Assembly: GCA_033763315.1 (NCBI GenBank)
Contig: JANRKS010000002.1
Span: 352,001 to 416,000 of the forward strand
From: Deltaproteobacteria bacterium
GTDB taxonomy: Bacteria; Myxococcota_A; Polyangia; Fen-1088
DNA: 64,000 nucleotides
Reading direction: 5' to 3'
The position numbers and the translations under genes are program-made. How positions within the stretch are numbered: position 1 is the first letter of the stretch; each line of letters begins with the position of its first letter. The notes below the pieces were generated by a model. It ran no database searches and was not told the origin of the DNA. It saw only the letters and a program-made list of their open reading frames with translations. Below, one piece after another: positions 6,402-54,137 of this stretch.

Positions 6402-6414
6402 CGCCCGCTTGCAG

Positions 6415-35500: not shown

Positions 35501-35627
35501 TTGATGGATCCGCCTTCGCGACGATTTCGCGGCGGATTCAAGGACTTACGTGGCCAAGCTGGACCTGCAAGACGCAACTAATGACGAGCGGCGTGACTCA
35601 AGTTACGCAACCAACGCGCCGAGTTAC

Positions 35628-37469
35628 ATGCGGATGCCGACCATGTCCCAGGGCAGCCCTCGGCGTCGGGGGAAAGCGAGCTTGTGCCTGTCGCTATTCT
35701 TGGCGATGAGCCTGGGTGCCAGCGTGGCCCGCGCGGCCCCTGTGGACGAGCCGCTGCCTTCGTATCTTGAGGCTTTGGAGAAAGCCGGCCGCCTGCCGGT
35801 GGAGACAGCGACGGCCGAGCGGTTGCGTGAGCAGGTGATCGAGGCCGAGGGCCTGCTGGCTCGTGGTGACGAGCGCGCGGCGACGGCCGTGTTGTTTGGT
35901 GTGGTTGAGGCGCCCCGCTTCGCTCCGCTGCGTGCGACGTTGACGTTCGCAAACGCTGAGTTCCTGTTGGGTCGGGCGCTGGCGCGTGGGCACGCTTATC
36001 AGGGGGCCACCCGCTACCTGCAGCGCGTGATGGCTCGGGGCGTGCGCGAGCCTTATTTTGTGCCCGCCTATCGCACGCTGGTGGATATGGCGCTGCAAAA
36101 TGGTCGCTTTGCTGAAACCTTGGCGGTGCTCGACGCCGCCGCGCCGGGCGCTTCCCTGCCCACTGACAGCGCCAACGAGCGCGCTTATCTCGCGGGCCGC
36201 GCGCATTGGGGGCAATGGCAAACCGCAGACGCGGCTTTCGCCATGGTGGGGGAGTCGTCTCGTCTTTACCCAGCGGCATTGTATTTTCGCGCGTTGATCG
36301 CGGTGGAGCGCGGTGACTATGCGCAGGCCAAAAATGCCTTTTGCAAAATCGCAGACCAAAAAGATCAAAGCAAAGTGACGTTCAACGTCGACGAACGCTT
36401 CTTTCGGCTCAAAGACATGGCGCGCGTGGCTTTGGGCCGCATCGCACACGAGCAGGGCAAGTATGACGAGGCTTACTACTATTACTTCTCAGTACCGGAA
36501 GAGTCCGAGCGTTTGAACGCGGCGCTGTTCGAGGCCTCGTGGTCCATGTCGCAACAGGGACAATTTGCGGCGGCGCGCGCGTTCGCCGACCAATTCGATC
36601 GTTTGTTTCCGGGCTCGCCCTTGCGGCCCGATGTGTCCTTGTTGCGCGCGAACCTCGCGGTTAAGACCTGCAACTTCGACGGCGCACGCGCTGAGGCCTC
36701 GGCATTGGTCGCGCGCTACCAGCCCGTGGCGGCGCTGGCCGCCAAGGTGCGGCAGGACGAAAGCGAACGCGAACGTTTGCTCAAGCGTGTGCTCGACGGC
36801 AATGATCGTCACAACCAAGACATTGAAGGCCAGTTGATCGAGGTCCTGAAACTGGATGACGAGTTCCGTGAACTCATCGGCATGTTGGCTGACCTCGAAG
36901 GCGATCTGTCCGAGGCACTGACGTCCGTGCGCACCTGGCGCGAATTGGGCGCCCTCACAAAGAAGAACAACAAGCAGCTGCCGGCACCCGCCTCGGTGGA
37001 GGCAGCCGCTGTGCTTGAGGATGCCAAACGCTTGATGGATGAGGCCAAGCGCGATCGTGCCTTTGTGAAGCCGCTGGCACAACTCATCCTTGATGCCACG
37101 GCCGCGGCTTATCCCACCGCCGACGCTGGTCCTTATGAACGTGAGGCCGCCCAGGCAAAAGAGCTGGCGGCCCAGCTGGCCGATCTGCGCGACGACACAT
37201 TGCAAACGTTGCGAACGATGGTGGTATCGGCGCTCGAAGAGGCGGACGATCGGCTGCGCGGCGTGCTGGCCAAAACCAAGCTCGTTCACATCGACGCTGT
37301 GGTGGGCAAAAAGAAGAAGCTTGAGATTCAAATTGGTGCGCTTGTGGAAGGCCGCATTCCGATCGAGCTGCTGCAGAAAATGCAGGCCGAAGGCACCATC
37401 GCCGATGACGAGATCTACTGGCCGTTCGAGGGCGAGCAGTGGGCGGACGAATACGAGAACTATCGATGA
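35628..37469 (+). CDS. gltC: Periplasmic TPR protein, GltC-like
   Basis: Signal peptide ending VARA, TPR motifs, C-terminal IYWPFEGEQWADEY resembling the GltC-type tail; first gene of a coupled operon. Confidence 0.72.
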   Translation: MRMPTMSQGSPRRRGKASLCLSLFLAMSLGASVARAAPVDEPLPSYLEALEKAGRLPVETATAERLREQVIEAEGLLARGDERAATAVLFGVVEAPRFAPLRATLTFANAEFLLGRALARGHAYQGATRYLQRVMARGVREPYFVPAYRTLVDMALQNGRFAETLAVLDAAAPGASLPTDSANERAYLAGRAHWGQWQTADAAFAMVGESSRLYPAALYFRALIAVERGDYAQAKNAFCKIADQKDQSKVTFNVDERFFRLKDMARVALGRIAHEQGKYDEAYYYYFSVPEESERLNAALFEASWSMSQQGQFAAARAFADQFDRLFPGSPLRPDVSLLRANLAVKTCNFDGARAEASALVARYQPVAALAAKVRQDESERERLLKRVLDGNDRHNQDIEGQLIEVLKLDDEFRELIGMLADLEGDLSEALTSVRTWRELGALTKKNNKQLPAPASVEAAAVLEDAKRLMDEAKRDRAFVKPLAQLILDATAAAYPTADAGPYEREAAQAKELAAQLADLRDDTLQTLRTMVVSALEEADDRLRGVLAKTKLVHIDAVVGKKKKLEIQIGALVEGRIPIELLQKMQAEGTIADDEIYWPFEGEQWADEYENYR

Positions 37470-40400
37470 AACGCCCGCTTTTCACCATGACTTTGGCCTT
37501 GGCGCTTTGCGCCCCAGGGGCTCACACGGTGCGCGCCGCACGCTCTGTGTCGCAGCCCGCGGAGCAAGCGGGCGCGGATGCCACCATCGCTGCGAAAGCC
37601 ACCAAGGCCCCGGCGCCTTTATCGCCCGAAGTGGAAGCGCTTATTAAGCAGAAGGAGAGCGAAGCGGCCACCGCACGCCGTGAGGGCATCGACCTGCTTG
37701 AAAGCTATCTGCGGGACGCGCGCGATCCCGACGAAACCGCGGAGGTGCTTTACAAGCTGGCCGAGTTGGCTTGGGAAGAAGCGCAAGCCCAGTATTTGGC
37801 GGCGATGGGGCGATACGAGGCCGCCGTGGAAGCGTGCCGTGCCGACCGTGACGTTTGCAAAAACGTACCTCGCCGCCGGCCACGGTTGGATCTCAGCCGC
37901 GCTCAAGGCACCTACGGTCGCTTGGTGCGGGAGTTTCCGAAGTTCCGAAAGATCGATACGGTTCTTTACCTCTACGCGTTTTCGCTGCGGGAACAAAACA
38001 AGAACGACGAAGCGATTGGGTACTTCCAAAAGATCTTGCGCGATTTTCCCGCGTCGCGGTTCCGCGCGGATTCTTGGATGGCGCTGGGCGAATATCGCTT
38101 TTACGAGCGGCAAGACTACAAAGGCGCGTTGGCGGCCTACAACAACGTCAATAAGTTTCCAGGTTCGCCGCTTTATGGGCTGAGCTTGTTCAAGGCGGCT
38201 TGGTGCCACTGGAAGTTGGGGCAATCTGATCTTGCCGCCGCGCGCTTCAAAGACGTGCTTGATCTAACGGAGTCTGCGAAGAACAAAGGTGAAAAGGCGC
38301 GCAAACAGGCCGCGGAGTTGCAGGACCAAGCGCTTGAATATTTGGTTGAGTTGTTCATTGAGGATGACACCAAGAGCGCGCAAGACGCTTTCAACTTCCT
38401 GGTGCAAATCGGCGGCAATGCGTATTCCGAACGCGTGCTGAAGCGCTTGGCCGACACCGTTTATGATCAAACGCGGTACGAGCGGGCTGCCGAGGCATAC
38501 CTATTCTTGTTGGGTTTGGCACCGTTGGGCAAAGATGCCCCGGATCACCAAATTCGCGTGGTGGAGTGTTTTCAGGCGTTGGGCAAAAACGATCGCGCCG
38601 CCGCCGAGATGCGCCGCCTGGCCACGCAATACGGGCCGAACTCGGAGTGGGCCAAAGCGAATGCCGATCATCCCAAGACGTTGGAACGCACCCGTGCTCG
38701 TGCAGAGGAGTTTGTGCGCACCCACGTCAAGCGGCTGCACGCGCTGGCGCAGCGGAACGAAAAGGAATCCAAGGTCGTGGACAAAGAGCTTTATGCCCAA
38801 GCGGCAGAAGGCTACGGCTTTTATCTGGAGCAATTTCCGGGCGCCAAAGACGCCGTGGAGCTGCGCTATTACCGCGCGGACATCCTTTTTTTCAAGCTGC
38901 AGCGCTACAAAGAAGCCGGCACCGATTATTTGAGCGTAGGCAAATCCAAACCAGTGGGGCCTCTGCACAAGGACGCCCTGCTGCAAGCCATGGGGTCGTT
39001 CGAGAAGTTGAGACCTCCGGCGCCAAAAACGCTGCAAGAGAAGCAAAAACGTAAAGTGACCGACGAAGATCGCAAGTTTGCCGAAGCGGCCGACGTTTAT
39101 GCCGAGATTCTGCCCGACGACAAAGACATCATTACGGTCATCTACAAGAACGGGCAGTTCTTCTATGACTACGGCGATTACGATGAAGCCACCAAGCGCT
39201 TTGGCCTCATTGTCGAGAAGTATCCCAATGATCCCAACGCGGGGGCGGCAGGGGATCGTCTGCTTGAATGCCTTGCGGAAGCGAAGGACTACAAAAACAT
39301 CGAGACTTGGGCGCGCCGCCTCAAACGCGCCAAAGCATTCGCTTCAAAGGACGACCAAAGGCGCTTGGATGGTTTGATCTTCGCGGCGCTTAACAAGCAA
39401 GCCGAAGAATTGGTGAAGGACAAGCCAGCGGAGGCGGCCGCGCTGTTTGAGCGGGTGGCGAAAGAATTGCCGGCACAGGAAGGTGCGGCGGTGGCGCTGT
39501 TCAATGCAGGCGCCGCCTACGAACAAGCGGGCCGCCCAGACGCGGCGGTGGGCGCGTATGAGGGTGTGGCCGAAAAGTTTCCGCAATCGCCGCGTGCGCC
39601 CGAGGCGTTGTTTGTTGCCGCCAAACTTGACGAAAGCATTGGCGACTATAGTGGCGCTGCAGGGTTGTATGAGCAGGTGGCCAAGCATTACCCGTCATGG
39701 AACAAGCATGCCGAGGCCACGCGCAACGCAGGTATCTTGCGGCAGACGTTGGGCCAATACGACAAAGCGGCAGCGCACTTTACGGCCTACGAGCAACAAC
39801 ATAAGGGCACCGCGGACGCCCACGACGTGGCCTTTGCCCGTGCAGCGATGTACGAGGACAAAAAGGATGCAAAGCAAGCGGTCAAAGCGTTCGGTGAATT
39901 CGCAACGGCTTACCCGAAAGACGAGCGTGTGGTCGAAGCGCTTGTGCGGCAGGGGCGTGGCCACATCGCTTTGAAGAACGAGAAGAAGGCGAAAGAGGCG
40001 CTTGACGAGGCCGTGGCTGTATTTAAGCGGCGCAAGCAACCCAAAGAGCAGGCGTTGTTTGCGGCGGAGGCGCGGTATCTCCATGGCGAGCTGCTGTTCA
40101 GGAACTATGAAGATGTGAAGATCGAGGGCGGGCCGCGGCAGTTGAGCAAAGCTTTGGAGCGCAAAGCGGCTTTGTTGGATGAGGCGAAAACCGTGTTCAT
40201 GGATGTGCTTTCCTATAAGGTGCCGGAGTGGGCGACGGCCGCGTTGCTGCGCATCGGGCAGGGCTATGGTTTGTTTGCCAAAGCCATTCGGAACACCAAG
40301 GTGCCCGCGTCGCTCAGCGCGGCGGAACAAGAGGTTTACCGCGAAGAGCTGGATAAGTTCGTGATCGTCATCGAAGACAAAGCTTTGGCCGCTTATCGTA

Positions 40401-40579
40401 CGGGCTACACCAAAGCGTTGGAGATTGGCGTCTACAACAGGCATACGCGCGCTTTGCGGCAGGCGTTGTCGGATCTAGATGGCACAGCCTTTCCGGCTGA
40501 GCCCGAAATCCGCTTGGGGCCACAGGTCAGTGAAACCACAGACGTGCCCGTGGTGATGCAGGAGATTCGACGTGATTAG
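37466..40579 (+). CDS. gltD: Large TPR protein, GltD/AgmU-like
   Basis: ATGA overlap with the previous gene; signal peptide; more than 1000 aa of TPRs; C-terminal WATAALLRIG...VPASLS...YREEL. Confidence 0.75.
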   Translation: MKRPLFTMTLALALCAPGAHTVRAARSVSQPAEQAGADATIAAKATKAPAPLSPEVEALIKQKESEAATARREGIDLLESYLRDARDPDETAEVLYKLAELAWEEAQAQYLAAMGRYEAAVEACRADRDVCKNVPRRRPRLDLSRAQGTYGRLVREFPKFRKIDTVLYLYAFSLREQNKNDEAIGYFQKILRDFPASRFRADSWMALGEYRFYERQDYKGALAAYNNVNKFPGSPLYGLSLFKAAWCHWKLGQSDLAAARFKDVLDLTESAKNKGEKARKQAAELQDQALEYLVELFIEDDTKSAQDAFNFLVQIGGNAYSERVLKRLADTVYDQTRYERAAEAYLFLLGLAPLGKDAPDHQIRVVECFQALGKNDRAAAEMRRLATQYGPNSEWAKANADHPKTLERTRARAEEFVRTHVKRLHALAQRNEKESKVVDKELYAQAAEGYGFYLEQFPGAKDAVELRYYRADILFFKLQRYKEAGTDYLSVGKSKPVGPLHKDALLQAMGSFEKLRPPAPKTLQEKQKRKVTDEDRKFAEAADVYAEILPDDKDIITVIYKNGQFFYDYGDYDEATKRFGLIVEKYPNDPNAGAAGDRLLECLAEAKDYKNIETWARRLKRAKAFASKDDQRRLDGLIFAALNKQAEELVKDKPAEAAALFERVAKELPAQEGAAVALFNAGAAYEQAGRPDAAVGAYEGVAEKFPQSPRAPEALFVAAKLDESIGDYSGAAGLYEQVAKHYPSWNKHAEATRNAGILRQTLGQYDKAAAHFTAYEQQHKGTADAHDVAFARAAMYEDKKDAKQAVKAFGEFATAYPKDERVVEALVRQGRGHIALKNEKKAKEALDEAVAVFKRRKQPKEQALFAAEARYLHGELLFRNYEDVKIEGGPRQLSKALERKAALLDEAKTVFMDVLSYKVPEWATAALLRIGQGYGLFAKAIRNTKVPASLSAAEQEVYREELDKFVIVIEDKALAAYRTGYTKALEIGVYNRHTRALRQALSDLDGTAFPAEPEIRLGPQVSETTDVPVVMQEIRRD

Positions 40580-41678
40580 TCGCTTGCGAAAGAGCGTTTG
40601 TGTTGGCCTGCTGACCGCGTGGGTTGGCGCGTGCGGTGGCGGGCCACCCGTCAAGCCCGGTGGTGGCATCAAAGCCGCTGAAGTTCCGAACGCGGTGCCC
40701 GCCGCGCAATTGGCCTTCGAAGAGGGCATGCGGCAATTCGCCCTGGGGCCCAAGGGGTGGCCCGCGGCCAAAGAGTCGCTGGGCAAAGCCGTCAAGCAAG
40801 ACAAGAATCTGTACGAAGCCTGGCACAACATTGGCGTGATAGAGGGCAACCTTGGTGATTGGAGCGCCGCTGCGGAGGCGTTTGAAAGTGCCTTGGCGGT
40901 GCAACCGGCATCGCGGCCATCGTTGTTGGGGCTGGGACACGCGCTCGTCAAAACCGGCCGCGCGGACAAAGCACAGAAGGTCTACAAAGCTTGGCTGAAA
41001 GCCGACCCGACGGATCGGCAAGTGAGGTTTGCGTACGTGGCAGCGCTGCGCGACGGGGGCGAAGGGGCGCAAGCACTGGAAGAGGTGCGGGCGCTGTTGG
41101 CAAAAAACAGCCACGACGTCGAAGCCTTCAATGCGCTTGGCTTGGTTTACAAAAAGATGAAGCGTTGGGCGTTGGCCAACACGGCGTTTCGGCGCGCGCT
41201 GGAGCTTGATGCGAAGGCGGCTTATGTGTGGAACAACTTGGGGCTACTGGCGCTTGAGCAAGGCGACGACGTGGAAGCGTTTGCGGACTTTCGGAAGGCC
41301 ACAGAGATTGACAGTGGCTTCGTGGTGTCGCTGTTGAACCAGGCGGTGGTGTATTTGGACAGCGGCGCCTACGACAAAGCGTTATCGGCGCTCGAGCAAG
41401 CGGCCAAATCAAAGCCCGACAATCCCGACATACATGTAGCGATGGGTGTGGCCTTGCGGGGCCTCAAGCGGTTCGACGATGCCGTGACATCTTATAATCG
41501 CGCACTGGACCTACATCCAGACTACCCTCCGGCGCTCTATAATTTGGGCGTCCTTTACATGGACCACAAGGAAGACCCACCCAAAGCGAAAACGGCGTTG
41601 GTTCAGTTTGCCAAAGTGGCGCCTGCAAAAGACCCCAAACGTGAAGACGTGAAGATGCGTTTAAGGATGCTCAAGTGA
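40572..41678 (+). CDS. gltE: TPR lipoprotein, GltE/AglT-like
   Basis: Lipobox VGAC; canonical TPRs (AWHNIGV, AFNALGL, VWNNLGL, ALYNLGVLY); synteny after gltD-like. Confidence 0.72.
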   Translation: MISRLRKSVCVGLLTAWVGACGGGPPVKPGGGIKAAEVPNAVPAAQLAFEEGMRQFALGPKGWPAAKESLGKAVKQDKNLYEAWHNIGVIEGNLGDWSAAAEAFESALAVQPASRPSLLGLGHALVKTGRADKAQKVYKAWLKADPTDRQVRFAYVAALRDGGEGAQALEEVRALLAKNSHDVEAFNALGLVYKKMKRWALANTAFRRALELDAKAAYVWNNLGLLALEQGDDVEAFADFRKATEIDSGFVVSLLNQAVVYLDSGAYDKALSALEQAAKSKPDNPDIHVAMGVALRGLKRFDDAVTSYNRALDLHPDYPPALYNLGVLYMDHKEDPPKAKTALVQFAKVAPAKDPKREDVKMRLRMLK

Positions 41679-42025
41679 AGGCGGCAATCATCTGTTTCGT
41701 GTTGGTCGTGGGCCTGTTGTCAGCGGGCCACGGCGCCGTTGCGGCAGACAAAGCCAACAAGAGCGCGCCTGGCGCTGCCAAGGCAGACGCCAAACGAGCG
41801 GAGCCTCAGGCAGCGGGTGCCGACGATGGTGGCGAGACGACGAAGGTGGAGGGCAAGAAGGCCAAGGTCTTGACCTTTGGTGCGATGGACGTCGAAGGCA
41901 AGATGCGTACGCCGCAGTTGTTGTTCTTCGTAGGCCGCGTGAAGGCTGAACTTGATTCAACCTCGCAACTCAAACGTTCGTTCATCAAAGAGTTGAAGGC
42001 AACGTCGAAGGAGAAAGGCCTTTGA
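41675..42025 (+). CDS. gltF: Small secreted GltF/CglF-like protein
   Basis: Signal peptide; LTFGAMDVEGKMRTPQ...RSFIKEL motif; positioned between gltE-like and gltG-like, with GTGA overlap. Confidence 0.65.
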   Translation: MKAAIICFVLVVGLLSAGHGAVAADKANKSAPGAAKADAKRAEPQAAGADDGGETTKVEGKKAKVLTFGAMDVEGKMRTPQLLFFVGRVKAELDSTSQLKRSFIKELKATSKEKGL

Positions 42026-43392
42026 GTGTGGTGACGACGCAGTTGCAGGTTGTGTGTAGCTGGCAACGCCGCTTGCTGGGCTACCACTTGCTTGGCCCTA
42101 AGGGCAGCTTCTCGGCGGGGCCGTCAAAACGCGCGCAGCTCAAGTGCCCTCAGTTTATCGGCGCGCGCAAACGTCTGGTGATCGTGCGTCCGGGCCGCAA
42201 TGGTTACAGGCTGCGTTTGGCCCCGGGCATGACCGGCTACGTGGAACAGCCGGGCGAAGGGCGCCAAGACATCACTCAGCTTCTGGCGCAGCCGATCAAG
42301 GGCAAGTCGCCCTTGCGAACCGTTCCGTTTGCCGTGGGCGCGGCCGCCGTGATCCAGATCGACGGCGCCGCTGGTTTGAAGCTGCAGCTGTCGTTCGTTG
42401 AGCCACCGCCAGCGGTGGGCAAGCGCACCTCAGATGATCGTTTGCCGTTTTACCGCCGCGTTTTGCTCGCGACGTCCGTTTCGCTGGCCGTGCTCGTGGC
42501 CGCGCTCGTGATATGGGGACCACGCACGGATCAAGACGAGAACATCACACAAGAGCGGTTCGCCAAGCTTGTGGAGCCCGAACTACAAAAGCCCGAAACG
42601 AAACAGGCGCGCGACGACGTAAAGAAGCACGGCGAAAAGAAGAAGCGCGACAAAGAAGCGGCCGAATCAAAACGCGCGAAGGACAAAGAGGGCAAGCTTG
42701 GCCGTCAAGATGCCAAAGGCGAAACGGTGATGCCTAAAGGCAATAAAGACGTTTTGCGCGAGAAGGTGTCGCAGGTGGGCGTGTTGTCTCTTTTGGGCAA
42801 AGCGAAGGCGGGCGGCTCTGGTTTGGGCAAGCTGTTGGCGGAAGCGAACCCCACCGACATGGAACAAGCGGTGACGGGCCTCACCGGCGGCCAGGTGGCC
42901 GTGGGCAAGGGTTCCGGCGGGTTGGGTGCCGCGGGCACTGGTTTGGGGGGAGGCGGCACGGGCTTTGGCCACATTCAAGGCTCGGGCGGGCTGGATGTGG
43001 GGGCCGGACGTGGGCACGGACGCAAAGGTCCGGGGCTTGGCACGGGCAAAGAAAAGACTGTGTCGGTTGGATTAAGCACAGGCGATCCAGACGCTGATGG
43101 TGGCCTCACCAAGGAGCAGATCAGCCGCGTTGTGTCTGCACACAAGGCAGCGTTGAAGTATTGCTATGAAAAAGAACTGCAGCGTAAGCCCAGCCTTGAA
43201 GGCAAGGTTGAGCTTTACTGGATGATTCGTGCCACCGGCGAAGTTGAACGCGTGAAGATCGCCACCTCGACGATGGGTGACGCCGAAGTTGAAGCCTGCA
43301 TGCAACGGCAGGTGAAGAATTGGCAGTTCCCCAAAGCGACGGCGCCCACCATCGTGCAACGTTACCCGTTTTTGTTTAAGGGAGGCGCGTGA
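42022..43392 (+). CDS. gltG: GltG/PglI-like membrane protein with TonB-C-like domain
   Basis: TM, charged helix (KAKDKEGKLG-like), Gly-rich tract, GGLTKEQISRVV...KYCYE...LEGKV...NWQFP...YPFLF. Confidence 0.82.
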   Translation: MSVVTTQLQVVCSWQRRLLGYHLLGPKGSFSAGPSKRAQLKCPQFIGARKRLVIVRPGRNGYRLRLAPGMTGYVEQPGEGRQDITQLLAQPIKGKSPLRTVPFAVGAAAVIQIDGAAGLKLQLSFVEPPPAVGKRTSDDRLPFYRRVLLATSVSLAVLVAALVIWGPRTDQDENITQERFAKLVEPELQKPETKQARDDVKKHGEKKKRDKEAAESKRAKDKEGKLGRQDAKGETVMPKGNKDVLREKVSQVGVLSLLGKAKAGGSGLGKLLAEANPTDMEQAVTGLTGGQVAVGKGSGGLGAAGTGLGGGGTGFGHIQGSGGLDVGAGRGHGRKGPGLGTGKEKTVSVGLSTGDPDADGGLTKEQISRVVSAHKAALKYCYEKELQRKPSLEGKVELYWMIRATGEVERVKIATSTMGDAEVEACMQRQVKNWQFPKATAPTIVQRYPFLFKGGA

Positions 43393-44387
43393 TGAAACCT
43401 ACCACCAAGTTGGCGTTGTTCACCCTGGCGTTGGGATGCACGTCGAATTCGCCAAAATATTTTGCGCCGCCCAAGCCGCTTGAAACCACCGACATGATGG
43501 CGTCGGCCACGGCCACGATCGAGTTGCCGTTCCGCCAGCCCACCGAGAACGAGCGCAAGCTCTTGCAGGAGGAAGGCAAAAAGCTGGGCTTCGGCGTGCC
43601 TTACTTGCAACGCGAAGACGTAGACGTTTCTGTGCAATACACGATCACCAATCTTTCGGATCAGCCTGGCGAAGCGAAGGTCACCATCAATGGCGCCGAC
43701 GAATTCACGGCCTATGATCTAGCGGCCATTCAGATGTATGTGGGCACCTTGATGTTGCCCCCAGATGCCGATCCGCCGACGTTGTTGTCGCTTTACGAGA
43801 CCACGAAAGTCGTTGTCCCCGCCAAAGGTAAGATCACCGGCAACATTCGCGAGGATGACATTTTGGAAGTCGATCGCGATCTGGATGCGATGGGGCGCTT
43901 TAAAGCGCCTTACCTTACGGTGCTGCTGAACGATTCCACGGCCAATCCGATGGGCATGGAGATGGTGCCGAAGAACGTGAAGTTGCCGCAGCTGTGGAAA
44001 ATAATCGTGACGTTTACGGCATCCACAAAGATGCGGCTCGACTTTTTGGTGCGTGTCCGCGATCAAAAGAACCTATTGGCCGAGGGTGACGAACCGCTTT
44101 TCAAGCCGAGCCCTAAAGCGTTCATGCCCACCATCGCGGGCGCGGTGCCAATCATGCCCGACATGATGAACATGGGTGGTGCACCAGGCATGGGTGGCGC
44201 ACCCGGCATGGGCGGCATGAACGCGGGCGGCTCGCCAGGCACGGGAGGCATGAACATGGGGGGGGCGCCCGGCACGGGCGGCAGCAAAGGTACGGGCGGA
44301 GCCCCTGGTACCGGCGGCATGTCCAACATGGGTGGTATGCCCAACACAGGTGGGGCCATGGCTTCGATGGATGCAGGCGTTGATTGA
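43392..44387 (+). CDS. Hypothetical lipoprotein with Met/Gly/Pro repeat tail
   Basis: RBS GGAGG, lipobox ALGC; C-terminal MGGAPG/GGAPGTGG repeats. Confidence 0.8.
   Translation: MKPTTKLALFTLALGCTSNSPKYFAPPKPLETTDMMASATATIELPFRQPTENERKLLQEEGKKLGFGVPYLQREDVDVSVQYTITNLSDQPGEAKVTINGADEFTAYDLAAIQMYVGTLMLPPDADPPTLLSLYETTKVVVPAKGKITGNIREDDILEVDRDLDAMGRFKAPYLTVLLNDSTANPMGMEMVPKNVKLPQLWKIIVTFTASTKMRLDFLVRVRDQKNLLAEGDEPLFKPSPKAFMPTIAGAVPIMPDMMNMGGAPGMGGAPGMGGMNAGGSPGTGGMNMGGAPGTGGSKGTGGAPGTGGMSNMGGMPNTGGAMASMDAGVD
44166..44360 (+). repeat. Coding low-complexity repeat (MGGAPG / GTGG units)
   Basis: Degenerate 18-nt units such as ATGGGTGGTGCACCAGGC and ATGGGTGGCGCACCCGGC. Confidence 0.75.
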
Positions 44388-44432
44388 TAAATCTGCGGCC
44401 AATGCGGTTACACTGAGCGCGTGCGGTTGCCT

Positions 44433-45044
44433 ATGGCTTTGAACTTCGCCTCGCGCGGTTGCGCTGCGGCCCTCCTGGTGTTGTTGTGTGTGCCGCCCGT
44501 GCACGCGCAGATCACGGAAGAGCCCGTGGCGCCTTTGCCAGATCCAAAAAAGTTTGCACACGGCGTGTTCGTGGATGCGGGCCTGGGTGCGTTCGTACTT
44601 TTAGGCAAGGCAGACGCGGTGGGCAGTGGCCCCGCGATCAGTGGCAGGGTCGGGTATGATTTGTTTCGGTTGCTGGCGGTGCAATTGCACGTGGCGGGCT
44701 CCACGCACCGCACGGATTTCGGTGCCGCTCCGCAATCGGGGCAGTTGCTGCAGGTCTACCAAACCACCGCTGAACTCAAGCTGACCGTTCCGATTCGCCA
44801 AGTGTCTGTGTACGCGTTCGGTGGCGCCGGCTTTGCGTTTTTCTCGACAAATATCTTGGGCACCACAGGGCTCACAACCAAAGACAAAACGAGCAGCCTC
44901 GTTTACGGCGGTGGGTTGGGTTTGGACTATCATCTGTTGTCGCGGCATTTCAGCTTTGGTCTAGAAGCCAGCTTCGCGAAAATTCAAGAGGTTCAGACCA
45001 CGGGGGGCATTCTTTCCACCGCGTACGTTCGCTACGCGTTCTGA
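44433..45044 (+). CDS. gltH: Outer-membrane beta-barrel protein, CglE/GltH-like
   Basis: Signal peptide ending VHA, about 8 amphipathic strands, terminal YVRYAF; synteny downstream of gltG-like. Confidence 0.6.
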   Translation: MALNFASRGCAAALLVLLCVPPVHAQITEEPVAPLPDPKKFAHGVFVDAGLGAFVLLGKADAVGSGPAISGRVGYDLFRLLAVQLHVAGSTHRTDFGAAPQSGQLLQVYQTTAELKLTVPIRQVSVYAFGGAGFAFFSTNILGTTGLTTKDKTSSLVYGGGLGLDYHLLSRHFSFGLEASFAKIQEVQTTGGILSTAYVRYAF

Positions 45045-45104
45045 TTTGTAACCGTTGCCGTTGGCAGGCATCCAGATAGGACGCGTGCTAGCTACACGAA
45101 GCTT

Positions 45105-46061
45105 ATGGCCACGACCGTTCCCTTCATTGTTCTCACGGGCTTTCTTGGCGCCGGGAAAACCACATTGCTGAACCGCATTTTGGCGGCCCAGCATCAACGC
45201 CGTGTGGCGGTGATCGTCAATGAGCTTGGGCGCATCGACATTGACGGCAAGCTGCTCAAGAGCCGCTCGGGTGATGTGGTTGAGTTGGTGGGCGGCTGCG
45301 TGTGCCACGAGCTCACGACCCAGGAAGAGCTGTGGGGCGGCCTCGCGGAGGTTGTCAACCGGTCGCAGCCAGAAGTGATCGTGCTTGAGACCACGGGCAT
45401 CGCCGAGCCGCGGCCGATTGTGGAAGGTCTCGAGGCGTTGCCCGCGGACGATCGCTTGGTGCACCCGGCCGGCGTTGTCACGGTGGTTGATGCCACGGCG
45501 GGTTTGGCGCAGTTAGAGCGCTACACCGAGGCGCGCGAACAGGCCCACGATGCCGACCGCATTCTCATCTCCAAGCTTGATGTGGCCCACAACGCCGAGA
45601 TTGCTCTTCTGCATGAGCGCTTGATTGCTTTGAACGACGAAGCCGAGCGCGCGAGCTTTCCGCACACCAACGAAGGCACAGCTGAGCTTGTGCCGTGGTT
45701 GTTGACCGCAGGTGTGCCCCGCATTTTGCGCCACAAGCACCCGCACACGCATCACCACCACAGCCGCCAGTTGGCGGCGGCCAGTTATGTGGACGACGCC
45801 CCTTTGCTGCGGGAGCCGCTGATGGCGCTGCTGCAAAAGTGGGGGCCGGGTTTGGTGCGTGTGAAAGGTTTCGTGAACATTCACGGCGAAGATCGGCGCG
45901 GTTTCCTTGAACGTGCAGGCACGCACACGGGCCTGCGTTTTGACAGCGCTTGGCCCGCTGGCGTGCGCCGCAACGAACTTGTGTTCATAGGCGAAGACTT
46001 AGATCCCGCCGCCGTTCGCCGCCAACTGTGGGCGTGCCGCGCTGTGGGTCATGATTCATGA
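45105..46061 (+). CDS. COG0523/CobW-family metallochaperone GTPase
   Basis: LTGFLGAGKTTLLN, IVNELG, GGCVCH, ETTGIAEP, SKLD, His-rich HKHPHTHHHH, RVKG, LVFIG. Confidence 0.93.
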   Translation: MATTVPFIVLTGFLGAGKTTLLNRILAAQHQRRVAVIVNELGRIDIDGKLLKSRSGDVVELVGGCVCHELTTQEELWGGLAEVVNRSQPEVIVLETTGIAEPRPIVEGLEALPADDRLVHPAGVVTVVDATAGLAQLERYTEAREQAHDADRILISKLDVAHNAEIALLHERLIALNDEAERASFPHTNEGTAELVPWLLTAGVPRILRHKHPHTHHHHSRQLAAASYVDDAPLLREPLMALLQKWGPGLVRVKGFVNIHGEDRRGFLERAGTHTGLRFDSAWPAGVRRNELVFIGEDLDPAAVRRQLWACRAVGHDS

Positions 46062-47008
46062 ACGACGAACCTGTCGCGCCCGCGCAAGAGTCGCCGTTGC
46101 CTGTGGTTCGCCACAGCACGATGCGCGGGGCGATCGAAGCTTGGTCTTTGGTGCTTTCCTCGCAAGGCATCAGCCACCACATCGTTGAACGCGCGGTGGT
46201 GGAGGAAGGCAGCGCGCCCTTGCGCTTTACCCAACAGTATTTGTTGGTGGTGCAGCCTCAGCATTTGCGGCGCGCCGCCGTGGCCTTGGCTCGCACCGAT
46301 GCGGAAGACGCCGAACGCGCGCGCACACCTGACGCCCCGCCGCCCGATCGCGGCCTCTCAATGGGCCCGATTGTGGTGTGCATCGCTTTGGCTGCGTTTT
46401 TCTTGATCAGTGGCCCGCGCGTCGGCAGCTCGCACTGGTTTGCCACGGGCAGCTCAGACGCCACGGCGATCTTGAAAGGTGCCTGGTACCGTGCGGCCAC
46501 GGGATTGACCCTGCACGCGGACGCGATGCACCTGCTTGGCAACATCGCAGCGATGTTGATCTTCTTGGGCGCCGCCTCACGCTGGCTGGGTGGTGGCGTG
46601 GCATTCACACTTACGTTGCTCGCGGGCTTCCTGGGCAACCTCGCCACAGCGGCTTTTTATGGGGGGCACCACAACTCGGTGGGTGCTTCAACGGCCACGT
46701 TTGCTGCTTTGGGGATTCTTGGCGGGCTGCAGGCCCGGCACCGCGTGAAGTTTGGTTGGTGGCATCGCAGCAACCGCATCGGACGCATGTGGCGAGCCGT
46801 GGCAGCGTGTTTGGCTTTGTTCGCAATGCTGGGCGTGGGAGGCCCCGAAGTGGATATGTTGGCCCACGCCACGGGCCTGGCTTGGGGGCTGGTGTTGGGT
46901 TTGGCCGCCGCGTTCCTGCCCCCGTTCAAAACGTGGGGCAACGTGGTTTGGGGTGCGGCCGGCGCCGTCTTTGTGGTGTTTTGCTGGGCGCGCGCGATGT
47001 TCGGTTGA
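46058..47008 (+). CDS. Rhomboid family intramembrane serine protease
   Basis: WYR, LHADAMHLLGN, catalytic VGAS and AHATG; ATGA overlap with the CobW gene. Confidence 0.9.
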   Translation: MNDEPVAPAQESPLPVVRHSTMRGAIEAWSLVLSSQGISHHIVERAVVEEGSAPLRFTQQYLLVVQPQHLRRAAVALARTDAEDAERARTPDAPPPDRGLSMGPIVVCIALAAFFLISGPRVGSSHWFATGSSDATAILKGAWYRAATGLTLHADAMHLLGNIAAMLIFLGAASRWLGGGVAFTLTLLAGFLGNLATAAFYGGHHNSVGASTATFAALGILGGLQARHRVKFGWWHRSNRIGRMWRAVAACLALFAMLGVGGPEVDMLAHATGLAWGLVLGLAAAFLPPFKTWGNVVWGAAGAVFVVFCWARAMFG

Positions 47009-47048
47009 GGCTTCGCGGTTGAGGCTCCGCGGTTGAGGCTCCGGTTGA
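47002..47048 (+). repeat. 14-bp tandem repeat (about 3.4 copies)
   Basis: CGGTTGAGGCTTCG / CGGTTGAGGCTCCG / CGGTTGAGGCTC / CGGTTGA; the first copy contains the rhomboid stop codon. Confidence 0.9.
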
Positions 47049-47158
47049 TTGATTCGAAGGGAGTTGCGCGTCTCGGGTGGCGCCACTTTACGCGGCGAAA
47101 AAACATCTGTGCGGCAGACCCACAAAGGGCGACGTTTGCGCGTACAATAGCTGCGGGC

Positions 47159-47584
47159 ATGAGACGCCTCCTTTTCATCGCGCTCACTGCGTTCGTGGCT
47201 AACTGTGGAACGGTTGATCTGGGGCCGACTCCTGCGGACATCAACACGTGCCGGCCAAGCCAACAGTTCTTCTACCAGCGCGTGTGGCCCGAATTGATCG
47301 ATAAGGACTACGGCGGCAAGAAGTGTGGCGACGCCCGTTGCCACGATGCCAGCAGCGGTCGTGAAATGATCGTGGTCACGCCCACATCAATGGCCACGTT
47401 GCCCCTGCCAGAAGATTGGATGCGCGTTTACAGATCGGTCACGGGGCAATTGCAATGCACCAGCATCGCTGAATCGCCGTTGCTCGCGCGTCCCGACGGC
47501 CGCCAGACCCATGGTGGTGGCAAGTTGTTCGAGCCTGGCGGCCCTCAAACCACGCTGTTGCGTATGTGGGCGGAGGCCAAATGA
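47159..47584 (+). CDS. Small lipoprotein with CX4CH putative heme-c motif
   Basis: MRRLLFIALTAFVANC leader; KCGDARCH; distal SPLLARPDGRQTHGGG. Confidence 0.7.
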   Translation: MRRLLFIALTAFVANCGTVDLGPTPADINTCRPSQQFFYQRVWPELIDKDYGGKKCGDARCHDASSGREMIVVTPTSMATLPLPEDWMRVYRSVTGQLQCTSIAESPLLARPDGRQTHGGGKLFEPGGPQTTLLRMWAEAK

Positions 47585-48417
47585 AGCGGATGTTGGCCCG
47601 CCACCTGATCTACGTTGCCGCCGCGATGGGGCTGTTGCAAAGCCACGCGCGTGCGGAGGGCGACGTGCAGGCGGCGGCATCGGCCGACGCGCCGTGGGGC
47701 ATCGTTCGCGTGATCGCCGAGGTGGCTGAGGTAAAAACGGGCCCAGGGTTTTCTTACCGTACGGTTTATGTGGCCCCGCGCGGTGAAACACTGACGGCGG
47801 TGGAACGTGCGAACCGTGATTATTGGTACCGCGTGAAACTTCCCGACGGCACCTTCGGTTGGGTGCTGGGTGATCAAGTTCTGGCGTTGAACGTGGATCC
47901 CTCGGCCAATGAACCGCCTGGGTTTTTCGCGCGCGTCGGCAATGCCATTTTTTCCCCACCGGCGTTGTTGGTTGGCGACGTGGGCCTGTCGTTTTCGGCC
48001 GGCGTGTTGGGCGGCGAGGGAATGGTGATGTTCCGCCCGTCGGTGCTCCTGGCGCCGCACTTGGCGCTTGAGGGCTTCGTGGGCGAAACCGTCGGCGAAC
48101 AACTGGACGTGCTCTACTACGGAATGGCTGCCAATTTGTTTGTGTGGCCAAGCTCCCCCGTGACACCGTTTTTCAGCTTGGGTGGTGGCGGCACGTGGGG
48201 GCGCACAACGCTTGATCAGTTTGCCGTGCAATCGCAGGCGGAGTCGGTGCGCGCACGGCAGGGGCAGCTTTCATTGGCGCAGGTGGGCGGCGGCTTGTTG
48301 ATTTCGTTCAAGAAGCGGATCACCTTGCGTTTTGATTTTCGCGACCACTTGGTGTTCGATCCCAACAAAACGCAAGAGCTCAAGGAGTACTCAGGTGGCT
48401 TGGCGATCTTTTTCTAA
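47581..48417 (+). CDS. SH3b domain fused to outer-membrane beta-barrel
   Basis: Signal peptide; VKTGPGFSY...WYRVKLPDGTFGWV (SH3b); C-terminal strands ending GGLAIFF. Confidence 0.8.
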   Translation: MKRMLARHLIYVAAAMGLLQSHARAEGDVQAAASADAPWGIVRVIAEVAEVKTGPGFSYRTVYVAPRGETLTAVERANRDYWYRVKLPDGTFGWVLGDQVLALNVDPSANEPPGFFARVGNAIFSPPALLVGDVGLSFSAGVLGGEGMVMFRPSVLLAPHLALEGFVGETVGEQLDVLYYGMAANLFVWPSSPVTPFFSLGGGGTWGRTTLDQFAVQSQAESVRARQGQLSLAQVGGGLLISFKKRITLRFDFRDHLVFDPNKTQELKEYSGGLAIFF

Positions 48418-48646
48418 GCGTGCCCTGGCTGCCGCCACGTTTGTGTTGATCGGCGCATTGGCGTCTGCGTGTGGCAGCAACCGCGCGTGGCTTGTGAAGC
48501 CACATCAACGCGAATACCTGGCCGATCGAATCATGCGCCCCGATAGCAACGCTTTGGAATCATCGGCGGATCAACATGTGTTGAACACGCGCGAGGGCGC
48601 CATTGGCGGCGGTGGCACCGTGGGTGGAGGCTGCGGATGCAACTGA
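48395..48646 (+). CDS. DUF4266 family lipoprotein
   Basis: RBS AAGGAG before GTG; ASAC lipobox-like; VKPHQREYLADRIM...REGAIGG...GGGCGCN C-terminus. Confidence 0.9.
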   Translation: MAWRSFSKRALAAATFVLIGALASACGSNRAWLVKPHQREYLADRIMRPDSNALESSADQHVLNTREGAIGGGGTVGGGCGCN

Positions 48647-49845
48647 CGCTTCCGTTTTCGCGCATGCTTGTGTGCGCGGCCATCCTGTTGCCCGCCCCGA
48701 TGTTGTTTGCCGATGTTCAAGGCGCGTCGCGGTTCACGATGTTCCGTGAGCCCGGGGAGAAGAACGCTGGTATCACAGTGCTGCACCCGCAAGCCGACGT
48801 CAGCGCAGAGGCGGGCGGTGCCTCCGTGGGCGCTGGCTATGAAGTGGATATGGTGAGCGGGGCCACGCCGCGGGTTTTTGGCGGTGTAGACGCAGTCACT
48901 TCCGCGACACGCTTCTCTGACTTGCGGCAGGCGGCGCGCGCAAACGTGGGTTGGAACGTCGCCGATGTGGGCTTATCAGCCGGCTATTCTTACGGTTGGG
49001 AGAGTGACTATATTTCCCACACGTTGCAGGTGGGCGCGCGCGGCGATTTCCTCGAGAAAAATTTCACGCTTGGCCTCTTCTACACACGCAACATTGATTC
49101 GGTGTGTGATGCCAATAACGCTTTGGCGCAAGGCATTTTGGATCGCAAGTCTCTCGTTTCTTCCGACAAGTGTTTTCAATCGGGCCAAACCGAAACGGTG
49201 AAGCGTGCGGTCGACATCCACACGTTCGAGCCCACTTTATCGTGGACGGCCACACCCAAATTGCTGCTGCAGTTTGGCGGCACGCTGCAGTTGTTGGATG
49301 GCTTTCAATCGAACCCGTACCGGCGCGTGTTGGTGGGCAGCCAAGGCAGAACGCCGCAAGAGCACGTGCCTGACAAGCGGCAACGCTACGCTTTGTTTGC
49401 GCGCGCCAATTACGCTGTGCCTGCGTTGCGTGCCGCCGTGTCGTTGCACGGCCGTGCTTACCGCGATTCGTGGGATGTGTTGGCGGCCACGGCCGACGCC
49501 TGGTTTACAACTTACGTGATGGACGCCCTGTTGTTCGGCGTACACGGCCGCTACCACCAACAAACTGGCGCGGTGTTTTACCGCAGCTCGCCGGATTACG
49601 AAACGTTGGGGCCGGCCGGATCTTATTGGACGGGCGATCGCGAACTGGCGCCGCTTGGCACGATCACTTCAGGCTTGAAGATCACCTACCTGCGCACTCG
49701 TCGGCAAAAGCCAGACGCGTGGTTAGATGAGTTGGAGTTGAACGTGAAGTTCGACGGCATGTTCTACAACGTGGAACGGTTCGGCCCGAACTCTGATCGC
49801 AAGATGGCGCTCATCACCCAGGTGGGCGTGAGCGCGCGGTTCTAA
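48637..49845 (+). CDS. DUF3570 family outer-membrane protein
   Basis: VDMVSGAT...VDAVTSAT, ESDYISH, GFQSNPYRRV, EHVPDKRQR, YRDSW, RYHQQT, DRELA, terminal F; overlaps DUF4266. Confidence 0.88.
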   Translation: MQLTLPFSRMLVCAAILLPAPMLFADVQGASRFTMFREPGEKNAGITVLHPQADVSAEAGGASVGAGYEVDMVSGATPRVFGGVDAVTSATRFSDLRQAARANVGWNVADVGLSAGYSYGWESDYISHTLQVGARGDFLEKNFTLGLFYTRNIDSVCDANNALAQGILDRKSLVSSDKCFQSGQTETVKRAVDIHTFEPTLSWTATPKLLLQFGGTLQLLDGFQSNPYRRVLVGSQGRTPQEHVPDKRQRYALFARANYAVPALRAAVSLHGRAYRDSWDVLAATADAWFTTYVMDALLFGVHGRYHQQTGAVFYRSSPDYETLGPAGSYWTGDRELAPLGTITSGLKITYLRTRRQKPDAWLDELELNVKFDGMFYNVERFGPNSDRKMALITQVGVSARF

Positions 49846-50345
49846 AGCGCTGTATCCGTGCCTGCGTCGGTGGTGGCGCCGCGGCTGAGCGAGCCCGCCA
49901 CGTTGCCCATGCACGTGAAGGCGATGTTGCCCAACGAGCCGTTGGCCGTGCCATCCAGGTTCATGTTCGCGTTGTTGCCCGCGGCGCTAAACGTGCCCGA
50001 AGCGACGTTGAGCGTGGCCGTGATGCCCTGAAGCGATACCGCGCAGCTTTGACCCGACAAGGGTGTGGCTGTCGAAGCGTCCTTAACGTTGAAGCGCAAG
50101 GTGCAACCGGTAAGGGCTGGATCTGTAAACGTCATCGCCAGATCGGCTCCCGTGCCCGCGACCACATTGACGACGCCGGTTAGCCCTCCTTCTAGGTCAC
50201 CAAATCCCGCGCAGGCCACTTTGACCTTCGCCTGCCCCACATTCCACATGCCCAAAAACGGTGTGAGGTCGTTGGTCTTCTTATCGTCGCTGCCACAAGC
50301 CACGACCGAACCAGCCATCAGTAAGCTTAGAACCAGGTGCTTCAT
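49842..50345 (-). CDS. Hypothetical beta-rich lipoprotein
   Basis: MKHLVLSLLMAGSVVAC lipobox; FLGMW lipocalin-like start, several Cys. Confidence 0.75.
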   Translation of the reverse strand: MKHLVLSLLMAGSVVACGSDDKKTNDLTPFLGMWNVGQAKVKVACAGFGDLEGGLTGVVNVVAGTGADLAMTFTDPALTGCTLRFNVKDASTATPLSGQSCAVSLQGITATLNVASGTFSAAGNNANMNLDGTANGSLGNIAFTCMGNVAGSLSRGATTDAGTDTAL

Positions 50346-50367
50346 TGTGTTCCCCATGGGCATGAGT

Positions 50368-52560: not shown

Positions 52561-52628
52561 GGCAATCGCCGCGAGGGGCGGTTGCCGGTAGGTATAGTAA
52601 ACCGTGGGCCTTCGCGCCCTTGCCCACG

Positions 52629-54137
52629 TCAACCCATGGAGATGATGGGCGCGGGATCAGACGCTTTCTCGAAAACCGAAGCGAGCTGGAACCCCGAGTA
52701 CCCCGGGTCCATGAACGGATCGCCATAGCCGTAGCCCACGCGGCCGAATTTTTCCCACTCGGCCTTCGGCACACCCATGGCTTGCAACGCGGTGGCCAGC
52801 CACTGCCGGTGCAGCAGCCCCAAGCGCTGTTGTTGAAAACCGCCGAACAGCTTCATCTTCTTGGTGCCGCGGTAGTCCACGAAAAGCCCCGTTTTGAAGT
52901 ACCCCGAAGCGGAGCCGGCCATCATCACGCAGCCATCTTGCGCGGCGTGCGTTTCCCATCCCGCCTCCTGTGTCCATTGCACCATGGCGTCGTCAAGCAA
53001 CGTGCGTCCGGGTGCCAGCGTGACAGCGTCCAGCTTCTTTACGAGATCCAAGAACACAAACTCGAAGATCGCCTGATGCACGCTGACCACGGTTTGTTGC
53101 GGTCCATCACCGCCCGCTTGGTGCGCAATGCTTTGATGATAGCCGCCACCGAATGTGTTGAAGCTGTCGCTGGGCACGCCGATCGTCACCACGCGCGTGG
53201 TGCCACACGCCAAGGCCGCCACGATCACGTCGTTGAGCAAGGGGTAAAGGGTCTTTCCACCCTCACCGCCAGGGCTCAGGTTGGCGGTGTCGCCTTTGAG
53301 CGTGGTGCCACCGCACACGCGCGGAGGTGGTGCGGTCAATTGGCGCTCAAGCTCAGCTAAGTGCGTGACGTGCGCGTCCAGGCGCGCCTTGTCTTCGGCT
53401 GAGAGCCGGCGGTTCGATTGCTTCAAGGTGCGGTAGTTTTCGATCACGCGATCAATGATCGGTTTTCGCGCGGGTGCCCCCGGCGTGCTGGGTGGCGCGC
53501 CTGCCACCAGCTTATCGAACAGCGACTTCGCTGAACCATCCAAGCCCACGCGGTTCACGGCGCCTGAGCCCAACGTGGGGTTGGCCCACGCGAACGAGCA
53601 GGGCATTTGAAAACCGCCACGGCCTGTGACGACGGAACGCATCTTGATGCCGCTCGTATCTTTATAGAACGACGGCGACCAAGCCATCACTTGATCGATC
53701 GACGCCATTTGCTTGAGGCCCCCTGGCCCCTGATCATTGACGGCGAAGTTTCCCAGCTGGCCGCTGTGGTGCCCGCTGTAATAGGGATAATCGATGCCGC
53801 GGATGACGTTCAGCTTGGCGGCCAATTGTGCGGTGAGGCCCGCCCCCCTCATCACCCGCGAAAGTTGACCGTTGTTCACGCCCGGAGCCAGATCGCCGTA
53901 CTTGACCGTGTAGCCGGGGAAGATTTCTTTGCTTTGGGTCAGGAGCGTTTCATTGGGGTACATGTTCTCGGGCTTGCAGGCGCCGTGCACGCTGCAAATG
54001 GCCGCGAACACAGGCTGCCGGCCCAGCTCTGCCGCCAAAGACGGACGCTCCACCAGTGAGGGCAAGAACGGCAACCCGAGGGTGAATCCTCCCGTGCCTC
54101 GCAACACTTGACGCCGCGTCGTGACGAACTTCTTCAT
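52629..54137 (-). CDS. DUF1552 family protein (Tat-like N-terminus)
   Basis: RBS GGAGGT; TRRQVLRGTGGFTLGLPFLPSL, SIDQVMA, EDKARLDAH, ALACGTTRV, TLLDD, AGSASG. Confidence 0.88.
   Translation of the reverse strand: MKKFVTTRRQVLRGTGGFTLGLPFLPSLVERPSLAAELGRQPVFAAICSVHGACKPENMYPNETLLTQSKEIFPGYTVKYGDLAPGVNNGQLSRVMRGAGLTAQLAAKLNVIRGIDYPYYSGHHSGQLGNFAVNDQGPGGLKQMASIDQVMAWSPSFYKDTSGIKMRSVVTGRGGFQMPCSFAWANPTLGSGAVNRVGLDGSAKSLFDKLVAGAPPSTPGAPARKPIIDRVIENYRTLKQSNRRLSAEDKARLDAHVTHLAELERQLTAPPPRVCGGTTLKGDTANLSPGGEGGKTLYPLLNDVIVAALACGTTRVVTIGVPSDSFNTFGGGYHQSIAHQAGGDGPQQTVVSVHQAIFEFVFLDLVKKLDAVTLAPGRTLLDDAMVQWTQEAGWETHAAQDGCVMMAGSASGYFKTGLFVDYRGTKKMKLFGGFQQQRLGLLHRQWLATALQAMGVPKAEWEKFGRVGYGYGDPFMDPGYSGFQLASVFEKASDPAPIISMG

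Follow-up and report, generated by a model that had tools for sequence, protein, structure and literature searches.

A block of 13 close-packed plus-strand genes was distinguished in a 64,000-nucleotide stretch of DNA (G000:C2:352001-416000, hereafter the window) of an uncultured member of the Polyangia (Myxococcota), whose genome assembly comprises 7.6 Mb in 40 contigs and is 90.85% complete. The block is composed of (i) module A (g1-g7), related to the Glt machinery of Myxococcus xanthus, (ii) an insert of two genes (g8-g9), and (iii) module B (g10-g13), which includes DUF4266 and DUF3570 genes. Modules A and B, i.e., 11 of the 13 genes, most likely constitute one joint system. Extra Glt-like clusters outside motility have been known in myxobacteria since 2011 (PMC3169522) and DUF3570, flavinylated and situated with DUF4266, since 2021 (PMC8238504); in the consulted parts of both papers the function is left open. 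The new elements here are the phyletic match between modules A and B and the fact that one family has them fused in a single operon, which connect both questions through a testable link: the outer-membrane end of a Glt paralogue would be a flavin/thiol set. In the literature sections consulted, searched from both sides, no published link between a Glt-type machine and DUF3570/DUF4266 was found.

The co-inheritance of the modules was analyzed across 401 evenly sampled Myxococcota genomes, with profiles of g6 and g11 as the hallmarks of modules A and B, respectively. The g6 profile matched 34 genomes (host included), and the g11 profile (E ≤ 1e-43) matched exactly the same 34, the host and 33 others. 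One extra g11 match, a weak one (E 8.9e-11), was found among the remaining 367 genomes, in a member of another class (G066); the g11 search used a stricter first look, by which weak matches may be missed. With this exception all carriers of g6 or g11 belong to the Polyangia, and they include uncultured soil and freshwater myxobacteria. Presence inside families is patchy and coincides for g6 and g11 (14/29 genomes of family f7, 4/23 of f15, 5/6 of f19 and 1/2 of f16). Among 41 relatives, the g13 orthologue (E ≤ 1e-60) occurs in 21 genomes, all of which carry g6; two more have g6 alone, one of them 70% complete and the other split into 620 contigs.

Gene order was compared in 14 loci from the genomes of 12 relatives. 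In eight of the 12 genomes g1-g7 are followed directly by g10-g13, and in two (G001 and G014) g8-g9 lie between the modules, as in the host. The modules of G034 are 170 kb apart, while those of G011 are placed on separate contigs, where g10-g13 are preceded by g8-g9 and a gene for an amidohydrolase. A species-representative collection provided 36 loci, several of them from the same genomes as the 12 relatives: 29 have module B directly after module A, one has g8-g9 in between, four contain module A without module B downstream, and two end at a contig edge. Module B thus follows module A in 30 of the 34 informative loci of the host's family, and in 27 of 32 distinct loci an in-frame g10 start is located -4 to +29 nucleotides from the g7 stop. 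The opposite order, with module B upstream of module A on the same strand, was found in three other families, at distances of 3.4 kb (G031), 6 kb (G281) and 7.3 kb (G430). Outside the host's family, 17 loci with module B were retrieved, and in 16 of them it forms a fixed g10-g11-g12-g13 unit; L106 departs from this, showing no more than a weak second g10-like match from G276. Since the same gene order recurs in relatives, the 13-gene arrangement is beyond chance. The recurrence of DUF3570, DUF4266 and SH3-barrel genes beside a Glt core, which a preliminary description of this DNA had put forward for examination, is borne out, with the C-X4-CH gene included, by a conserved order and an identical phyletic pattern.

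The two modules might instead be independent systems connected by shared ancestry only, module A being a Tol-Pal-like envelope-integrity device and module B a self-contained periplasmic redox system. Such a reading is improbable given the identical presence and absence in 33/33 carriers with patchy losses within four families, the two linkage orders in different families and the short stretch that separates the g7 stop from the g10 start; it can draw on the DUF4266-DUF3570 pairs that occur without Glt genes in many bacteria (PMC8238504), one of which is located on host contig C9, and on two single-contig genomes in which the modules are approximately 5 Mb (G406) and 7 Mb (G276) apart. The lack of linkage between the modules, seen in several complete genomes, weighs against the joint system, as do two further points: the carrier genomes are related, so that the co-occurrence counts overstate independence, and a sequencing-run search over positions 43000-49900 returned no RNA matches and four DNA runs only (word share 0.06-0.15). 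Co-occurrence persists where the modules lie megabases apart, and it is difficult to account for the coinciding patchy losses together with the two linkage orders unless modules A and B are functionally tied.

Table 1. Genes of the 13-gene block, with positions in the window and matches to Pfam and NCBIfam models.
Gene	Position	Strand	Predicted product	Model matches
g1	35550..37469	+	GltC-like periplasmic TPR protein	NF033756 (GltC) 88 bits vs cut-off 450
g2	37466..40579	+	GltD-like large TPR protein (1037-1046 aa), probably a lipoprotein	TPR and YbgF-type matches
g3	40572..41678	+	GltE-like TPR lipoprotein; lipobox in translation	NF033758 (GltE) 127 bits vs cut-off 225
g4	41675..42025	+	Small secreted protein in GltF position; signal peptide, conserved C-terminal part	
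g5	42022..43392	+	GltG-like single-pass inner-membrane protein with TonB-C-type end	NF033760 (GltG) 189 bits vs cut-off 650, model positions 204-646 of 650; NF033768 (AgmX/PglI C-terminal domain) 106 bits vs cut-off 40; TIGR01352 (TonB-C-type) 22.5 bits vs cut-off 27.1
g6	43389..44387	+	Module A hallmark lipoprotein; jelly-roll beta-sandwich, Gly/Met/Pro-rich tail	
g7	44421..45044	+	Small outer-membrane beta-barrel in GltH/NfsH position	PF13505 (OMP_b-brl) E 3e-11; NF033755 (CglE) 62 bits vs cut-off 70
g8	45105..46061	+	COG0523/CobW-type GTPase with His-rich stretch	PF02492 141.5 bits; PF07683 65.2 bits
g9	46058..47008	+	Rhomboid intramembrane protease, coupled to g8	PF01694 57.2 bits
g10	47159..47584	+	Lipoprotein with C-X4-CH and distal His; possible haem or metal site	
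g11	47566/47581..48417	+	Module B hallmark; periplasmic SH3_3 domain and C-terminal outer-membrane barrel	PF08239 E 8e-10; TIGR04565 (OMP_myx_plus) 22.8 bits, weak
g12	48332..48646	+	DUF4266 lipoprotein, C-terminus G-G-G-C-G-C-N	PF14086 71.1 bits vs gathering 27
g13	48637..49845	+	DUF3570 protein, putative outer-membrane barrel	PF12094 85.1 bits vs gathering 25

The limits of the block (35550-49845) were taken from the open reading frame (ORF) list of the whole window, whose ORFs were compared with Pfam and NCBIfam models (Table 1). All 13 consecutive genes named in the preliminary description are in place, and the model assignments agree with its labels. The block is flanked by a divergent LacI/ribose ATP-binding cassette operon on one side and by a convergent uvrC gene on the other. 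The coupling of the first six genes, also proposed there, is visible in the sequence as ATGA (g1/g2), GTGA (g3/g4 and g5/g6) and TTGA (g4/g5) overlaps and an 8-nucleotide overlap of g2 and g3. Further ATGA overlaps join g8 to g9 and g10 to g11, g12 and g13 overlap by 10 nucleotides, and the intergenic gaps measure 33 (g6-g7), 60 (g7-g8) and 150 (g9-g10) nucleotides. A consensus scan found two promoter-like sites (3.2 expected) and 27 terminator-like sites (23.5 expected), i.e., not above chance. The start of g1 is uncertain (35550, 35628 or 35643, with a signal peptide after the third candidate), and the likely start of g12 is a GTG at 48395.

The CobW-type GTPase and rhomboid genes, whose domain models score above gathering thresholds, are a lineage-specific insert of a few lineages and stand outside the conserved core. 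Gene g8 lies between the modules solely in L029, L030 and L038 and upstream of module B in G011, and g9 has the same distribution. As a core part of the system the pair was rejected: of the 30 loci of the species-representative collection in which modules A and B are joined, 29 lack it. The earlier inclusion of these two genes in the system consequently fails (they are missing from 29 of the 34 informative loci), and they would represent a later addition.

Module A is a diverged Glt paralogue and is neither the sole nor the most canonical copy of the host, as judged from three collinear clusters in the genome, the higher scores of one of them, and the phylogeny of the GltD-like proteins. The three clusters (in the window and on contigs C32 and C33) share the order C-D-E-small-G. 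Against the GltG model, the C32 cluster reaches 414 bits, module A 189 and the C33 cluster 180; against the GltC model, C32 scores 293 bits vs. 88 for g1. The C32 cluster also encodes a 3475 aa GltI-like TPR protein after GltG, and its small protein in GltF position (L009 18348-18788) matches the CglF model with 84 bits vs. a cut-off of 90. In an IQ-TREE analysis, 16 module A rows of the GltD-like protein (GltD'; primes denote module A proteins) from several Polyangia families form one Polyangia-only clade with a support of 100 in the Shimodaira-Hasegawa-like approximate likelihood ratio test; the paralogues on C32 and C33 fall outside it, as do nine clusters of other classes. This was a quick search on 27 rows chosen from 60, with several long branches. 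Of 201 genomes sampled, 157 encode GltD-like proteins, and a single genome may have as many as six. The reading of the cluster as a distinct Glt paralogue is thus supported; a more canonical glt locus lies elsewhere in the genome, and this copy is neither the only one nor devoid of conserved downstream genes. The position of gltC directly before gltD, pointed out as a difference from Myxococcus, is present and is not special to this cluster, being common to all three host clusters and to those retrieved for other classes of Myxococcota, where the order is C-D-E-(F)-G-barrel.

The individual assignments within module A differ in their basis. The g1 orthologues are 41-64% identical, and g1 has paralogues on C32 and C33. 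Gene g2 is called GltD-like on the basis of its TPR architecture and its 23-24% identity to the proteins in GltD position on C32 and C33. The small secreted protein g4 matches no family among the Pfam or NCBIfam models, and its designation refers solely to its position and character. The GltG-like protein g5 is a short form without the first (N-terminal) FHA domain of full-length GltG; its TonB-C-type domain and single-pass character are kept in all module A loci. The hallmark lipoprotein g6 matches no Pfam or NCBIfam family. Its predicted model (mean predicted local distance difference test score, pLDDT, 80) is a jelly-roll sandwich, and its best fold matches (VIA), with Z values that are middling for so common a fold, are to the PNGase F N-domain (Z 7.7), the sugar-binding domain of Fbs1 (Z 7.0) and BcsB (Z 6.7); Foldseek retrieved generic jelly-rolls (template modelling score 0.2-0.3), and the Atlas scores, all below 0.9, gave no lead. 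The barrel protein g7 ends with Phe.

Module A resembles the Agl-Glt system of M. xanthus (clusters G1/G2) in that GltC, GltD, GltE and GltG homologues occur together with a small protein in GltF position, the gene after GltG encodes a barrel, the motor genes lie at another place, and GltD and GltE are predicted lipoproteins. Unlike Agl-Glt, the block contains no GltA/B/K, GltI/J or CglB, as domain searches showed and as had been noted earlier for gltK/B/A and gltI/J; it encodes the short GltG', the extra jelly-roll lipoprotein g6 and different outer-membrane partners (DUF3570, DUF4266, SH3-barrel and C-X4-CH proteins), and its proteins do not attain the equivalog cut-offs, the more canonical cluster being that of C32. 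In the published Agl-Glt model, the barrels GltA, GltB and GltH and the lipoprotein GltK dock on GltC, and GltF connects the TonB-type end of GltG with GltC (PMC11761067). A complex prediction for GltC' (residues 63-639), g7 (30-207) and g11 (44-283) gave 0.00 twice and, having been run without controls, is not evidence either way.

The non-motility clusters of M. xanthus comprise nfs (genes nfsA-H, with the two barrels A and B before C), which according to the consulted part of the description lacks GltI, GltJ and GltK, and the uncharacterised G4 (MXAN_1922) and G5 (MXAN_1327) (PMC3169522). Module A resembles these as a compact cluster, a putative non-motility paralogue that has their core, places C ahead of D and lacks GltI, J and K. 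In contrast to Nfs, no NfsA/B-type barrels precede g1, a divergent LacI gene being found instead; in contrast to Nfs, G4 and G5, the g6 and g11 families are confined in the 401-genome sample to the Polyangia (save the weak match in G066), a comparison made without named M. xanthus sequences. In the search for a Myxococcus-like genome, the GltG equivalog cut-off was not reached by G144 or G134.

These similarities are the basis of a rival explanation, in which the whole would be built for surface translocation, as are Glt (gliding) and Nfs (spore-coat assembly), with a function in motility, sporulation or surface-polymer handling; module B would be its platform or cargo, and the flavin/thiol features would be secondary. 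The order C-D-E-F-G-barrel, matching other Myxococcota clusters and, by gene names, nfsC-H (PMC3169522), the glycan-binding domains among the best matches of the g6 jelly-roll (Z 6.7-7.7), and the lack of GltI, J and K that Nfs shares all agree with it. We nevertheless regard it as rather unlikely: there are no polysaccharide genes in the cluster, the CglB adhesin model (NF033757) has no match over cut-off in the host genome (best 37 bits vs. 200), GltG' lacks the first FHA domain, the genome already contains the more canonical C32 cluster, and the conserved partner genes bear redox-type motifs. The TraA model also gave no match over its cut-off.

The motifs in question are found in g10, g12 and g13. 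DUF3570 proteins are flavinylated by ApbE at two [S/T]GA[S/T] motifs (Meheust et al., 2021; PMC8238504), and DUF4266 proteins bear a C-terminal CXC and usually occur in the company of ApbE, a thioredoxin-like protein and DsbD (PMC8238504). In g13, an ApbE-type site S-G-A-T (residues 74-77) is situated within a conserved D-x-V-[ST]-G-A-[ST]-P, and the strict [ST]GA[ST] motif is kept by all but one of the 27 distinct rows (26 of 27) in the host's family and by all 15 rows from other families. The C-terminal C-G-C of g12 is present in 37 of 37 aligned rows, one with Ala before it, and in 5/5 loci of families f7 and f16. The redox reading given in the preliminary description agrees with the published data on these two domains (PMC8238504) and is plausible. 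Module B is similar to the published clusters (PMC8238504) in having a CXC-type DUF4266 gene directly before a [S/T]GA[S/T]-type DUF3570 gene; unlike them, it has no adjacent ApbE, thioredoxin-like or DsbD gene, its fixed partners are a C-Xn-CH lipoprotein and an SH3-barrel protein, and it is co-inherited with a Glt-type transducer.

The host genome contains a single ApbE gene, located on contig C19 among unrelated genes and encoding a product with a signal/lipobox; domain searches of the genome found no FMN_bind and no DUF2271 proteins. The second DUF4266-DUF3570 pair of the host (G000:C9:185457-187029; L074 7457-9030) is accompanied by no Glt, SH3-barrel or g10-like gene and has a PEGA-domain gene nearby; its DUF3570 protein shows a Porin_4 match and has no strict [ST]GA[ST] motif. 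Since there is one exported ApbE, no FMN_bind or DUF2271, and no strict motif in the C9 protein, g13 appears to be the best candidate substrate of this orphan ApbE.

In the g10 alignment C56, C61, H62 and H118 are invariant, PSCyt1 comes closest among the named Atlas clusters (score 0.93), and the predicted model is helical (pLDDT 76). Foldseek found nothing at E ≤ 0.001, the best hit of a PDB sequence search had an E of 0.18, a permissive Pfam search (E ≤ 10) of 18 orthologues gave nothing recurrent (four scattered single matches), and a profile hidden Markov model of g10 detected only short C-terminal similarities (E ≥ 5e-4) among the ORFs of the host. The host genome encodes cytochrome c maturation proteins. 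C-X4-CH is a haem-binding motif in cytochromes c3. Of the earlier designation as a haem lipoprotein, the invariant C-X4-CH motif stands, while the weak fold match and the Cys spacing detailed below reduce the haem site to a lead, the alternative being a metal site.

The explanation that we favour as a whole, with about an even chance of being right, is one envelope-spanning, two-module system that serves a redox-dependent step at the outer membrane and not gliding. That the system has a redox or transport/metal role at the outer membrane, and not one in surface translocation, is, taken by itself, a tentative assignment that falls short of even chances. The co-inheritance of a Glt paralogue with a flavin/thiol-type set suggests that this family of machines also has a task other than motility. 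The system would comprise (i) the GltG-like inner-membrane protein with its TonB-C-type periplasmic end, (ii) a periplasmic TPR scaffold of GltD', GltE' and GltC' with the small protein in GltF position, and (iii) an outer-membrane end formed, by analogy with Agl-Glt, by the barrels g7, g11 and g13 and the lipoproteins g6, g10 and g12, with g13 probably flavinylated at S-G-A-T by the single, orphan, exported ApbE. Proton flow through a TolQR/ExbBD/AglRQS-type stator encoded elsewhere would be converted into movement of GltG', the TPR scaffold would hand this movement on to the outer-membrane complex, and the latter may gate or drive a redox-dependent step whose substrate would be a metal or a thiol. 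In its most specific form, a Glt-family transducer of the Tol/Ton class, driven by the proton-motive force, would energise an outer-membrane flavoprotein/thiol (possibly haem) conduit as a powered gate for redox reactions or metal handling; this is speculative and unlikely, and if true it would be the first function for the orphan Glt-like paralogues and the DUF3570/DUF4266 systems. The drive by the proton-motive force, put forward earlier, is suggested by homology: a TonB-C-type part couples to the stator in Tol, Ton and Glt systems (PMC3169522). Like TonB-ExbBD and Tol-Pal, module A has a single-pass inner-membrane TonB-C-type protein and YbgF/CpoB-type TPR repeats; it differs in the lack of adjacent ExbBD/TolQR genes, in a far larger periplasmic TPR scaffold and in the absence of a plug-domain TonB-dependent receptor.

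Several observations weigh against the favoured explanation. (i) All scores are below the NCBIfam equivalog cut-offs for GltC, GltE, GltG and CglE (Table 1). (ii) No MotA/ExbB/TolQ gene was found in the window, as stated in the preliminary description, or next to any of the three Glt-type clusters; the 14 MotA_ExbB matches of the host genome all lie in other places, with no link from any of them to this cluster. (iii) No ApbE, thioredoxin-like (PF13899) or DsbD gene is present in the 13-gene block or beside module B in the scanned loci (flanks of 8 of the 12 fetched loci). (iv) The second flavinylation site of g13, 14 residues further on, is a relaxed [ST]-x-A-T (TSAT here), strict in 8 of 27 rows. 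(v) The barrel nature of g13 is deduced from its terminal Phe, the Porin_4 match of the C9 paralogue and the published insolubility of DUF3570 in Escherichia coli (PMC8238504). (vi) The Cys spacing of g10 varies in other families from C-X5 to C-X13-CH (4-13 over the orthologues), and its top fold match (VIA), the dihaem cytochrome FoxE, is weak (Z 3.9).

The absence of an adjacent motor gene would also fit a role in outer-membrane upkeep, i.e., thiol/disulfide or cofactor handling of outer-membrane proteins and lipoproteins, in which the scaffold would do no more than position the redox module under the outer membrane, without transducing energy. The YbgF/BamD-type repeats of the TPR scaffolds, and an operon that encodes three barrels along with five predicted lipoproteins, are in line with such a role, which we find very unlikely in view of the conserved TonB-C-type domain and single-pass GltG', the stator-coupling part in Tol, Ton and Glt systems (PMC3169522). 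Experiments on the favoured two-module envelope system are feasible, as both modules occur in complete genomes, probably of cultured Polyangia.

Some features of the related loci and of the neighbourhood were also recorded. A convergent methylenetetrahydrofolate reductase gene follows g7 in three of the four loci without a downstream module B and in the copy of G011 (L033 14263-15450, L041 3055-3936, L053 11464-12528), which suggests one sub-lineage with a shared rearrangement. In L057, L070, L071 and L073 (contigs of long-read metagenome-assembled genomes), g1, g2, g5 and g13 are split into two to four ORFs; assembly frameshifts are more likely than decay, because neighbouring genomes have those genes intact. 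Four genomes from Polyangia families other than the host's have a large AAA_16 and TPR (STAND/MalT-like) gene immediately next to module B (L097 6741-10052, L099 7022-10042, L100 12721-15519, L104 10423-13218); it is divergent in three and convergent in one, and may encode a regulator.

Within the window, a 309 aa ORF without an assigned family (49842-50771, minus strand) is convergent on g13. It is a putative gene with an uncertain start, and in its listed extent shares approximately 400 nucleotides with the 3' end of uvrC (50368-52632). About 5.5 kb downstream of g13 (55314-56431, minus strand), a PEGA-domain protein is encoded together with a thioredoxin/AhpC-like protein, thioredoxin-like proteins being the usual partners of DUF3570 systems. 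Positions 2464-7930 (plus strand) contain genes for a DUF1592/DUF1588-type (PSD/PSCyt3) protein and a DUF1552 protein, an ORF without assignment and a gene for a 485 aa protein. The C-terminal part of the latter matches GltG/AgmX-PglI (135 bits to the GltG model) and TonB_C, which makes it a further TonB-C-type protein, encoded approximately 28 kb upstream of the 13-gene cluster.

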